DNA of 64,000 nucleotides from NCBI RefSeq assembly GCF_003019035.1, contig NZ_CP027447.1; one strand, written 5' to 3'. Shown here piece by piece: positions 334 through 9,744 of this stretch. Position numbers and translations under genes: made by a program. How positions within the stretch are numbered: position 1 is the first letter of the stretch; every line of letters starts with the position of its first letter. Source of the stretch: Escherichia coli (lineage in GTDB: Bacteria; Pseudomonadota; Gammaproteobacteria; Enterobacterales; Enterobacteriaceae). The notes below the pieces were generated by a model. The model ran no database searches and had not been told where the DNA came from. It saw nothing but the letters and a program-made list of their open reading frames with translations.

Positions 334-1094
334 GCGAGTTCTACCGCAGGGGCGGGGAATTCTAAGTGATATCCATCATCGCATCCAGTGCGCCCGGTTT
401 ATCCCCGCTGGCGCGGGGAACACTTGCAGTAGCACTTCAGTTCTGTTTTTGTCACCGGTTTATCCCCGCTGGCGCGGGGAACACGCCTGATAGCGCCTCC
501 AGCCTTCGCCCTGGTGCGGTTTATCCCCGCTGGCGCGGGGAACACTGCATAGCTTTGGCTTCTTCTTTAACGGACGCCGGTTTATCCCCGCTGGCGCGGG
601 GAACACAGTACCACTGTTTTTTCTTCGGTGCCCAGCCACGGTTTATCCCCGCTGGCGCGGGGAACACGTTTACATATTTATACCTACACGCTCAATCGAC
701 GGTTTATCCCCGCTGGCGCGGGGAACACCCGTTTTCGATTGAACAGAAAGATTTCAACACCGGTTTATCCCCGCTGGCGCGGGGAACACAATACAGACCC
801 GTTGTACGGTTTTTGCGAGCACGGTTTATCCCCGCTGGCGCGGGGAACACTTGGAAATCACCTCCCCGATCTCCGCGCTGTCCGGTTTATCCCCGCTGGC
901 GCGGGGAACACCCCTCGGCAAAAATGCCTTTTTCCTCGTCGGTCGGTTTATCCCCGCTGGCGCGGGGAACACCACGGGCCAGACGGTAGCAACAATTTTA
1001 CGGCCGGTTTATCCCCGCTGGCGCGGGGAACACCAAAACGGAAGTGCCAGTATTGCCAGAATCACCGGTTTATCCCCGCTGGCGCGGGGAACAC
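334..1094 (-). CRISPR. Type I-E CRISPR array: 13 repeats of 29 nt (terminal one degenerate), 12 spacers of 32 nt
   Basis: Exact repeat CGGTTTATCCCCGCTGGCGCGGGGAACAC starts at 395, 456, 517, 578, 639, 700, 761, 822, 883, 944, 1005 and 1066 (61-nt period). A degenerate copy at 334-362 keeps the CCGC..GGCGGGGAA core. Leader and cas2 lie on the high-coordinate side, so crRNA sense is the minus strand. Confidence 0.97.
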
Positions 1095-1190
1095 ACTAAG
1101 CATACGTATCTGTTTTTAAACAATTTTATTCCACATCAACAATCTACCAACTAAATTCAAACATTTCCTTATTTTTAAAGAACGGGTAAC
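1095..1190 (-). promoter_or_regulatory. CRISPR leader (AT-rich) between first repeat and cas2
   Basis: AT-rich 96 nt between the newest repeat and the cas2 stop; contains AACAATCTACCAAC at 1138-1151, also found in the second array's leader. Confidence 0.6.
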
Positions 1191-1484
1191 TTATTGATTC
1201 TCAACAGGAAGAAACGAAACCAACCGTAACCCATCCAAATCCACCGGAATACGTCTGTTTTCACCCCAGGTCTGAAATTCAAAACCCGACTCGGTATTGG
1301 TCGCCCAGGCCATGACCACATTTCCGCAACCTGCCAGTTGGGAGATTTGCTGCCAGATCATCTCCCGAATACGTTTTGATGTATCACCAACATAAACACC
1401 GGCACGTACTTCCAGGAGCCAGATTGCAAGCCGTCCACGTAAGCGCGGAGGGACATTTTCTGTAACAACCACGACCATGCTCAT
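1191..1484 (-). CDS. cas2: Cas2 adaptation endoribonuclease
   Basis: 97-aa [37 protein letters not shown]... matches the E. coli Cas2 (YgbF) family; start overlaps cas1 stop. Confidence 0.92.
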
Positions 1485-6961: not shown

Positions 6962-7044
6962 CCTCTCGTAAAAAAGACCATCCCTGGTCGGTTGTCCATC
7001 CTTTTTTGTGTATCAACTATTCAGAGAATCCTGTCGCAGACATC

Positions 7045-9744
7045 TCAACCAACCTTGCCAATCAATCCCTCCGTAGCCGAATACCCACAACTTTCGTCAT
7101 CGGTGACTAAAATCACGTTTGCCATCTCCGGATCATGCCGCTGTTCAACGCACCACTGCCTGAACGCATCCCCTTCCAGTAAAGAAAACTCATCCCGATG
7201 TTTTTTCCACCAGCTTCGGCGCACTCTGACAACGCTCATTTCCCATGCGTGTGCACCTGTGGCATAAGGCTTCACCACACCGTCAATACAGGTAGCCAGC
7301 CACAGGGAAACAGACTCTTCAGCCAGACGTGTCGACAGTTTTTCCGGGAGGTAATCGTTGATATTGGCGGCATAGCCGGGCCTGAAGTTCAGTACAAACT
7401 TTTTAGCCATTGCGCGATCGCAGTAATATTTGCCCACTTGCTCCTGCTCGCTGCGGGCAAACCCTTCCGGCATTACTACGTCCTCACCGTAGACTGATTC
7501 AATCAGAAGCCGGGCTGAGTGTGGCATCTGAATAGCACCTTGCTCACGCAGCACACGCTGCGTCAGCCAGATTCGCCCATGATCGGGATAGACAAATGCA
7601 CTGTTACGCATGGCACTGCCAAACCATTCGTCACCCGGAGAGTCGTCCCAGACGGGGGCCAGAATCAGCAATTCAGGAGGGTGACGCTCGTCTTTACCGT
7701 CACGCTTTAACTGGCCATTCATATCGCGGATATGTCGCTGTAATCGCCCTGCTCGCTGGATCAGTAAATCAACAGGGGCAAAGTCGGAAATCATTTCGTC
7801 CAGGTCGCAGTCAACGCTCTGCTCCAGGACTTGAGTACAAATGAGGACTTTTCCGGCACGCTGTGAACAGTCTTCTTTACCAAAGCGTGCCAGCGTCTCC
7901 GTTTCAATTCGCTGGCGATCGCTAAAAGCAAAGCGGCTATGAAAAAGTGAAAGGCTGGAAGCAGGAATGACGCCGCGGGCAAGTAACTGACGATGAACCT
8001 GGATGGCGTCATCGACAGAATTTCGGATCCAGGCGATACATTTCCCCTGACTTACCGCCGATTCGATACGCGCAATACACTCTTGTTCGCTATGAAGCCA
8101 ACCCACACTCACGCTGCGCTCAACGTCTTTGCGCGTCGCTACCCGGTGTGAATGCACATCGGATTTCGTAACGTGCGTCAGCCAGGGGTAATCATCCTTT
8201 TCCAGGAACGGAGCTTCTTGCTGGCCCTCTATACCACGCGCAAAGGCAGCAACGAGTTTGTCGCGCTGCTGTTGAGATAACGTGGCAGAAAGCAAAATGA
8301 CGCTGTTTCCGCCACGCGCCTGCCGCTCGATCAGCCCTTCAAGAATGCATGACATGTAAGCGTCACAGGCATGGATCTCATCAGCCAGCAGGATTTTGTT
8401 ACTCAGTCCCAGAAGCCGCAGATTATTATGTTTGAACGGCATCACAGCCATCATCGCCTGATCCAGCGTGCCGACGCCAATTTCAGCCAGTAGCGCCTTC
8501 TTGTTACTGTCGGCAAACCAGGCCGCACATCCCTGACTGCACGTTTGTTCATCCGGTTCTTCTGACCCGACTAAATCACCGGACCAGAGTGATTCATTAA
8601 AGCGGTCCATTAATGTTCGGGCACTGTGTGCCAGCACCAGGCTGGGGCGGGACTCTGGCGAATAGAAAGCAAGCCAGGTTTTGACCAGTCGATCGTACAT
8701 GGCATTGGCCGTTGCCATTGTTGGCAGGCCAAAAAACAAACCCTGCGCTTTCCCCGCAGCCATCAACCTGTGCGCCAGGATAAGCGCCGCTTCTGTTTTA
8801 CCTGCGCCGGTTACATCCTCCAGAATAAATAACTGTGGTCCCGGCTGGCTGATATCCAGATCCAGCACCTTTTGCTGTAGCGGTGTCGGATTCTCAATAA
8901 AAGGAAACAGCGTATTAATTCCGGTGAAAGGCGCGCTTTCTGCTTTTGGAGGAAAGACGGTTAAGGCGTTTTGAGCCTGAACTAAAGTTTTCTGCCAGTA
9001 ATCTTCAATATCCATTGTCTGTGCGACGCGTGGAAAATATCGCGTTGACGATCCCGTCCAGTCTGCAAGTACGACGGTTGCAGAGATATACCAGGAAAGT
9101 TGTTTTATAAGTTCAACGCCCTCGTCATCATCCCAGAATGTGGGGATCTCTATGAGCGGAAACAGTACCTTGATTGCAAGGAGAAAATCTCGTGCGGCAC
9201 CTTTGTCTTCAGGCAGAAAATTATCCAGTTCATCCATACGCTCAGGGGGTCGACCATGATGCCCGGTAGTCATGGGCATCCACATCTCCATCACCCGTTT
9301 AAGTTTGCGCGGAGAGAGTGAAGATGAAGGAAGCAACTCCTGACATTCACTTAAATAATGGTTCCACAACCAGTAGCCCAGCGTTGAATGAGAGATCTTT
9401 TCGTAATTCTTTCTTGCGCCTTCCGGAACCTTGAGTTGTGGGTGCAGGTAAAGTTGCTGAAAAGAGCGGGCAAATTTTCCAATATCGTGCCAGCACAGCA
9501 GCCAGGCGAAAAATTGTGCTGCCAGCTCCGTGTCAGCGAAACCTAATTGACGAAAATAGTCAGCCAGTCCGAAGCAATTGCTTTTAACCATTAAATAGCC
9601 CATCGCGGCTACATCCAGCGAATGCCAGCAAAGAAGGTGATAGTCGTCACCACCCTCTTTCTCGCCGCGTCGGGTTTTTCCCCAGAAATCAAAAAAAGTC
9701 ACAATATTTTTATCCTTCAGTAAACTTAAAGGATATTTACGCAT
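7045..9744 (-). CDS. cas3: Cas3 HD nuclease / DExH helicase
   Basis: 899-aa ORF with N-terminal HD region (HSLDVAAMGY...WHDIGK), Walker A DVTGAGKTEAAL and DEIHA box. Confidence 0.95.
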   Translation of the reverse strand: MRKYPLSLLKDKNIVTFFDFWGKTRRGEKEGGDDYHLLCWHSLDVAAMGYLMVKSNCFGLADYFRQLGFADTELAAQFFAWLLCWHDIGKFARSFQQLYLHPQLKVPEGARKNYEKISHSTLGYWLWNHYLSECQELLPSSSLSPRKLKRVMEMWMPMTTGHHGRPPERMDELDNFLPEDKGAARDFLLAIKVLFPLIEIPTFWDDDEGVELIKQLSWYISATVVLADWTGSSTRYFPRVAQTMDIEDYWQKTLVQAQNALTVFPPKAESAPFTGINTLFPFIENPTPLQQKVLDLDISQPGPQLFILEDVTGAGKTEAALILAHRLMAAGKAQGLFFGLPTMATANAMYDRLVKTWLAFYSPESRPSLVLAHSARTLMDRFNESLWSGDLVGSEEPDEQTCSQGCAAWFADSNKKALLAEIGVGTLDQAMMAVMPFKHNNLRLLGLSNKILLADEIHACDAYMSCILEGLIERQARGGNSVILLSATLSQQQRDKLVAAFARGIEGQQEAPFLEKDDYPWLTHVTKSDVHSHRVATRKDVERSVSVGWLHSEQECIARIESAVSQGKCIAWIRNSVDDAIQVHRQLLARGVIPASSLSLFHSRFAFSDRQRIETETLARFGKEDCSQRAGKVLICTQVLEQSVDCDLDEMISDFAPVDLLIQRAGRLQRHIRDMNGQLKRDGKDERHPPELLILAPVWDDSPGDEWFGSAMRNSAFVYPDHGRIWLTQRVLREQGAIQMPHSARLLIESVYGEDVVMPEGFARSEQEQVGKYYCDRAMAKKFVLNFRPGYAANINDYLPEKLSTRLAEESVSLWLATCIDGVVKPYATGAHAWEMSVVRVRRSWWKKHRDEFSLLEGDAFRQWCVEQRHDPEMANVILVTDDESCGYSATEGLIGKVG

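Follow-up and report, generated by a model that had tools for sequence, protein, structure and literature searches.

Whether a type I-E CRISPR-Cas system (short palindromic repeats, clustered and regularly interspaced, with their associated proteins) that looks unlike the one in strain K-12 is anything out of the ordinary for Escherichia coli is the question raised by positions 334-9744 of the window studied here, the whole 64,000-nucleotide (nt) stretch of contig NZ_CP027447.1 (assembly GCF_003019035.1). A preliminary description, made from the sequence alone, had seen in these positions a complete system whose Cas proteins and repeat differ from the K-12 set. Our analysis assigns the locus, with a probability of about 95%, to chromosomal CRISPR-I (iap-cysH) carrying the cas-E1 variant of type I-E (cas-EO, O157:H7-type). 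It is an ordinary and common locus that has already been published and annotated in RefSeq, and it holds no novelty. As the majority-type I-E system of E. coli, described in publications from 2010-2014, it carries little weight as a discovery.

Gene content and variant of the locus

All eight cas open reading frames (ORFs) lie on the minus strand without an internal stop, and each of the encoded proteins matches its own NCBIfam type I-E model end to end, above the curated cut-off (Table 1). The genes follow the type I-E order cas3-cse1-cse2-cas7-cas5-cas6e-cas1-cas2, then leader and array, in agreement with the annotation of identical DNA in E. coli SCU-301. The RefSeq annotation of that strain also supplied the starts that we used for cas1e and for cse1 (the ATG at 6955; the ORF has a further ATG at 6961). 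The signature subunits of the subtype, Cse1/Cas8e and Cse2/Cas11e, are both full-length matches to their models, and Cas3 has the fused domains of type I-E, with an HD motif at residues 86-87, GAGKT at 313 and DEIH at 455. Its closest solved structures are the type I-E Cas3 proteins 4q2c and 4qqw. Sequence searches of the PDB returned distant relatives only, namely K-12 CasA and the Cas3 structures of Thermobifida and Thermobaculum, and no solved structure of an E1-variant protein. The catalytic residues are also in place: E141, H208, D218 and D221 of Cas1 are conserved, and the catalytic histidine of Cas6e, H20 in K-12, aligns with H30 of the window protein.

The array is equally regular. Twelve identical 29-nt repeats at 395-1094 follow one another at an exact spacing of 61 nt and enclose 12 spacers of 32 nt; a search that allowed up to three mismatches found 12 copies of the repeat, against 0 expected by chance. 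The repeat reads CGGTTTATCCCCGCTGGCGCGGGGAACAC on the plus strand and GTGTTCCCCGCGCCAGCGGGGATAAACCG in the orientation of the transcript and CRISPR RNA (crRNA), which is the minus strand. In the latter orientation it forms a hairpin identical to that of the K-12 repeat, a GCCA loop on a 7-bp stem (-15.1 kcal/mol), and the hairpin predicted for the degenerate terminal repeat is weak (-7.3 kcal/mol). Repeat length, stable hairpin, spacer length and period are all those of type I-E. The leader lies between the first spacer (S1, 1034-1065) and cas2 and the degenerate repeat lies at the opposite end, so that S1 marks the leader end and is the newest spacer, and S12 (363-394) is the oldest. Within the leader there is a promoter-like site, TTGGTA-16-TAAAAT at 1150-1123, identified by consensus match only.

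Membership in the E1 variant is clear from the proteins, the repeat and leader, and the surroundings. Relative to O157:H7, identity is 98% for Cas2, 97% for Cas6e, 96% for Cas5e, 99.7% for Cas7e, 95% for Cse1, 94% for Cas3 and 83% for Cse2. When the MG1655 locus was taken as the K-12 reference and compared by BLASTP, identity was 84% for Cas1 and 86% for Cas2 and fell to 35% for Cas5e, 30% for Cas7e, 29% for Cas3, 27% for Cas6e and 21% for Cse1; Cse2 and K-12 CasB gave no BLASTP match. The Cas proteins therefore group with O157:H7 (94-99.7%, with Cse2 at 83%) and not with K-12, where the interference proteins are 21-35% identical or unmatched. NCBIfam models built on K-12 also scored below their thresholds, with Cse1 reaching 103 bits against the K-12-specific NF007247 (cut-off 576) and Cas3 419 bits against the K-12-type NF007248 (cut-off 569).

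Leader and repeat type are linked to the cas variant (PMC3737337, PMC3903273). Diez-Villasenor et al. 2013, who named the variant cas-EO, linked it to leader-A, type-A repeats and a CWT acquisition motif (PMC3737337), and Almendros et al. 2014 named it cas-E1, the primary E. coli set (PMC3903273). The window has the leader-A/L1 and the type-A repeat (ending in AACAC on the plus strand) of this variant, and its layout, iap-array-L1-casE1-hok/sok-cysH, corresponds to what Almendros et al. 2014 called arrangement A (PMC3903273). According to the same study, hok sok occurs in every strain other than the E2 carriers (PMC3903273). In the window the Rfam sok model RF01794 matches at full length at 10076-10233 (111 bits) beside an intact 50-amino-acid (aa) Hok/Gef gene, and a Hok/Gef coding sequence is annotated on the identical SCU-301 DNA. 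The variant is widespread: at least 80% of the 10.5-kb locus is covered in 2410 of the 5426 complete E. coli genomes, and 2453 of them carry cse2 (~45%).

Most of what the preliminary description had stated about this anatomy holds. The system is complete, with eight intact genes that give full-length NCBIfam matches, and the array has the 12 spacers that it counted, set among 12 perfect repeats and the degenerate terminal one. The spacer that it took for the leader-proximal one is indeed S1, beside which lies the leader and at whose end SCU-301 carries an additional unit. Cas3, CasA and CasB differ from K-12 as it had stated, by more than it had suggested, and the repeat ends differ in the way it had noted. 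Neither near-identity to K-12 nor frameshifts in the cas genes, the two observations that it had offered as refutation, were found, and the comparison with known I-E variants that it had proposed leads to the O157:H7 type, with the Salmonella Senftenberg system more distant. Its picture of overlapping stop/start junctions is right for four of the seven (cas1/cas2 and cse1/cse2 by ATGA, cas6e/cas1 by GTGA, and cas5e/cas6e by 19 nt) and wrong for the other three, which are gaps of 10, 14 and 89 nt.

Table 1. Coordinates of the CRISPR-I locus, its marker locus and the second array in the window
Feature	Positions	Strand	Model match or description
Degenerate terminal (leader-distal) repeat, GAATTCCCCGCCCCTGCGGTAGAACTCGC	334-362	-	In 61-nt register with the perfect repeats
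CRISPR2.1 array	363-1094	-	12 spacers alternating with 12 identical repeats
Leader, type A / L1, AT-rich	1095-1190	-	96 nt, between array and cas2
cas2e, 97 aa	1191-1484	-	TIGR01873, 133 bits
cas1e, 307 aa, GTG start	1481-2404	-	TIGR03638, 380 bits
cas6e, 216 aa, pre-crRNA endonuclease	2401-3051	-	TIGR01907, 287 bits
cas5e, 248 aa	3033-3779	-	TIGR01868, 158 bits
cas7e, 351 aa, Cascade backbone	3790-4845	-	TIGR01869, 448 bits
cse2/casB, 178 aa, small subunit	4860-5396	-	TIGR02548, 105 bits (cut-off 28.5)
cse1/casA, 520 aa, large subunit and PAM (protospacer adjacent motif) reader	5393-6955	-	TIGR02547, 605 bits (cut-off 70)
cas3-cse1 intergenic region	6956-7044	-	89 nt (83 nt counted from the first ATG of the ORF, 6961)
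cas3, 899 aa, fused HD nuclease and superfamily 2 (SF2) helicase	7045-9744	-	TIGR01596 (HD) and TIGR01587 (helicase core), above cut-off
hok/sok-type toxin-antitoxin locus	9939-10233	-	Between cas3 and cysH; E1 marker, outside the immune machinery
CRISPR2.3 array, cas-less (ygcE-queE)	26787-27059	-	5 variant repeats, 4 spacers, own AT-rich leader

Divergence from K-12 and resemblance to O157:H7

The K-12 system (cas-E2, or cas-EK) shares with the window the subtype, the gene order and the chromosomal site, as well as the 29-nt repeat with its hairpin, the 32-nt spacer length and the oldest spacer. It differs in Cas3 and every Cascade subunit, which are 21-35% identical or undetectable by BLASTP, and in the type of leader. 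The second position of the repeat, a base outside the stem, is T in the window and A in K-12, so that the plus strand ends in AACAC here and in AACTC there; the oldest repeat of K-12 itself, on the iap side, has the AACAC ending. Further differences are the cas3-cse1 gap (414 nt in K-12 and 89 nt in the window), the hok locus, of which K-12 keeps only a sokX remnant, and the published acquisition motif, which is CTT for K-12 and CWT for the variant in the window. Within the short gap of the window there is a weak terminator-like hairpin at 6989-6976, followed by six T residues, and at 6994-7004 AAGGATGG occurs in one copy in the window and in two in SCU-301, with AAGGATGGAATGATGG at this place in O157:H7.

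The divergence from K-12 follows modules: it affects the interference genes, and the adaptation genes, encoding Cas1 and Cas2, are conserved. This contrast between ~85% identity for Cas1 and Cas2 and the far lower values of the interference proteins goes beyond what the preliminary description had noticed. K-12 is placed in a small group of strains that had their leader-cas module replaced (PMC3903273), and the divergence reflects this published replacement in the K-12 lineage and nothing special to the strain of the window. Because the module was replaced and K-12 is the atypical strain, its PAM, its regulation and its intergenic promoters need not transfer to E1 systems.

The resemblance to O157:H7, also E1 in arrangement A (PMC3903273, PMC3737337), extends to the iap-cysH site, the gene order, the repeat, the degenerate end repeat, the oldest spacer, the hok locus and the short cas3-cse1 gap, and the leaders are the same but for a few bases. 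The two differ in spacers S1-S11, which are not the same, the O157:H7 array holding four spacers only, and in Cse2, which at 83% identity represents another allele class of a polymorphic gene. Within E1, no other gene is nearly as polymorphic as cse2, whose protein stands at that value next to neighbours at 94-99.7%. Across the 2453 genomes in which it was found, nucleotide identity to the window copy ranges from ~85% to 100% and is below 90% in about half; in ~650 complete genomes it is at least 95%.

A more distant relative is found in Salmonella enterica serovar Senftenberg NCTC10384, which shares the iap/cysH neighbourhood, the repeat family and a Cas1 that is 83% identical. Its interference proteins form a third module (Cse1 45%, Cas3 44% and Cse2 35% identical), and its cas3 is divergently oriented, with sopD next to it. 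That a third interference module stands near a Cas1 of 83% identity is one more case of this modularity. The record in question is labelled plasmid 2; it is 728 kb long and contains rpoS, cysDNC and other core genes of the chromosome.

Proposed function, spacers and possible silence

From the established biology of type I-E systems, the array would be transcribed on the minus strand from the leader promoter and each repeat would be cut by Cas6e 3' of the hairpin, yielding 61-nt crRNAs. Around each of these a Cascade of one Cse1, two Cse2, six Cas7, one Cas5 and one Cas6e would be assembled, with Cse1 reading the PAM, for which CWT, or AWG on the spacer-sense strand, has been published in the E1 variant. 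R-loop formation would then recruit Cas3, the HD nuclease and helicase of which would nick and degrade the target. New 32-nt spacers would be inserted by Cas1-Cas2 at the leader-repeat junction. Expression of the locus and actual immunity, both interference and spacer acquisition, would likewise be expected from the intact genes and catalytic residues and by analogy with other I-E systems. For adaptation in this lineage there is indirect evidence, as 11 lineage-specific spacers and the additional leader-end unit of SCU-301 suggest that spacers have been gained.

To gain insight into the origin of the spacers, which may be read as a record of past invaders, we carried out the search of phage and plasmid databases that the preliminary description had proposed. 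The whole array was compared by BLASTN (word 11, E <=1) with 50,697 phage and 72,556 plasmid records, and no window spacer was matched there at three mismatches or fewer. The hits consisted only of other CRISPR arrays, some of them entered in error as phage or plasmid records, and brief chance matches such as one of 25/26 nt in a Pantoea plasmid (E = 0.7). When the concatenated spacers were compared with the 5426 complete E. coli genomes by Megablast and BLASTN, S1-S12 matched nothing outside CRISPR arrays, prophages included. IMG/VR, species-representative genomes and metagenome contigs were scanned for exact matches, with N placed at every sixth position: S1, S2 and S3 gave 0 matches in IMG/VR, S1 gave 0 in the 100,044 species-representative genomes, and the four matches of S1 in metagenome contigs were all CRISPR arrays.

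The distribution of the spacers among arrays is uneven. S12 occurs in 3747 of the 5426 complete genomes, including K-12 and O157:H7, regardless of cas variant. S2-S11 are found in SCU-301 only, and for 11 of the 12 spacers no other complete genome has a copy in its iap-side array. In six other complete E. coli genomes and three metagenome contigs, S1 also occupies the second place after the leader of the CRISPR2.3 array (ygcE-queE; 1501-1532 of one compared CRISPR2.3 stretch), and its presence in two array loci reflects either independent acquisition of one protospacer or transfer between arrays. Many of the 227 genomes matched, among them BL21(DE3), E. coli B and E. coli C, have in their arrays a relative of S9 (546-577) identical at 29/32 positions, which suggests that related invaders were sampled at the same site.

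Several points weigh against reading the locus as a working E1 immune system. The collections searched held a protospacer for 0 of the 12 window spacers, and inference of a PAM was therefore impossible. The K-12 I-E system is silenced by H-NS under laboratory conditions. The region upstream of cas3 in the window is AT-rich, which by analogy would fit H-NS-like silencing here too. In PMC10910852, E. coli CRISPR-Cas is described as generally accepted to be inactive in laboratory conditions through a transcriptional repressor, and arrays as stable for years. A further point concerns the variant: GC content from cas2 to cas3 is 51.4% (49-55% per gene), nearer to E1 than to E2 yet somewhat below the mean of 53.5% reported for E1 (PMC3903273).

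One alternative is that the locus is a structurally intact but silent relic, repressed for example by H-NS and giving no current immunity, with an array that is a frozen historical record. Such a relic would account for spacers without a match to phage, plasmid or prophage in the collections searched, for an oldest spacer that is frozen across 3747 genomes, and for the AT-rich region upstream of cas3, and it agrees with the laboratory inactivity and array stability described in PMC10910852. It fits less well with eight genes and catalytic residues that are all intact, with eleven spacers specific to the lineage of the window, and with the one leader-proximal unit by which near-clonal SCU-301 differs, the spacer of which resembles a lambdoid prophage tail gene and looks like a recent acquisition. 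We regard a silent relic as a serious possibility, if a little less than an even one.

The near-clonal strain SCU-301, the lineage and neighbouring features

The window is nearly identical to the genome of E. coli SCU-301 (NZ_CP051751.1), a rectal-swab isolate from a healthy student. Over the 64 kb the two differ by one single-nucleotide polymorphism (SNP; the base-by-base comparison covered ~42 kb), one copy of the 8-nt unit between cas3 and cse1, and one CRISPR unit, and strict identity between them was rejected on these three differences. We also rejected an identity of 97.9% to SCU-301 as a measure of divergence, as it arose from an off-register alignment across the array. The CRISPR unit is an extra repeat with a spacer, S0 (TGTGCGCCCCATACGGAGCGCCAGCGACATCA), which SCU-301 carries exactly at the leader-repeat junction (1094/1095 in the window; 2141-2201 of the compared SCU-301 stretch). 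S0 matches genes annotated as 'phage tail assembly protein T' in lambdoid prophages at 29-30 of 32 positions, and the match at 30/32 is flanked by GAG. This is the sole prophage match among the spacers, and S0 is not a spacer of the window. An independent metagenome contig, OKOL01002220.1, carries S0-S1-S2-S3.

The one-spacer difference could reflect natural acquisition, and it could equally reflect deletion or an assembly difference. It is the only mildly interesting point of the locus and, if real, would offer a rare glimpse of commensal E. coli adapting in nature. To an account in which nothing was acquired, a tandem repeat having been collapsed or expanded in assembly or the first unit lost in the strain of the window, we give somewhat under even odds. 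Both length differences between the genomes are differences in tandem copy number (the 61-nt CRISPR unit and the 8-nt repeat), a pattern that assembly or polishing errors, slippage and recombination typically leave. The form with S0 is nonetheless real, as it is also seen in contig OKOL01002220.1, and S0 sits at the exact site of new-spacer insertion and resembles a phage gene. That the near-clonal pair captures a very recent natural acquisition by an unmanipulated commensal E1 system, with S0 taken from a lambdoid-phage tail assembly gene and S1, a near-newest spacer in the CRISPR2.3 array of unrelated strains, sampled convergently from one hot protospacer of an invader not yet sequenced, seems to us rather unlikely. 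If it were true, it would argue for E1 systems at work in the gut, against the usual idea that E. coli CRISPR lies dormant.

In the window outside the CRISPR-I locus, housekeeping genes at 10500-35000 (cysJIH, pyrG, eno and others) are 95-97% identical to those of all complete E. coli genomes except SCU-301, which places the strain in a divergent lineage that has seldom been sequenced. A new and undescribed I-E sub-variant apart from both known E. coli variants, to which the 83% identity of Cse2 to O157:H7, a full-locus nucleotide identity to any other genome of ~97-98% at best and the failure of the K-12-specific NCBIfam models might point, is very improbable and was rejected on the O157:H7 protein identities and the distribution of cse2, given that identity to the E1 reference is 94-99.7% for the remaining seven proteins, that a nucleotide divergence of 2-5% is that of the flanking housekeeping genes of the lineage, that the window cse2 has close counterparts in the ~650 complete genomes mentioned above, and that identical DNA is already in RefSeq.

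The second array, CRISPR2.3, lacks cas genes of its own and is presumably served by the Cas proteins of the iap-cysH locus. Its repeats begin with GAG, as in K-12. The three leader-proximal ones read GAGTTCCCCACGTCAGCGGGGATAAACCG and have a stem mismatch that weakens the hairpin to -9.7 kcal/mol, compared with -15.1 kcal/mol for the perfect repeat of CRISPR2.1, and processing by Cas6e may be impaired as a result. Farther along the window, a full-length CsrB small RNA lies on the minus strand at 49364-49723 (Rfam RF00018, 383 bits), in its usual neighbourhood.

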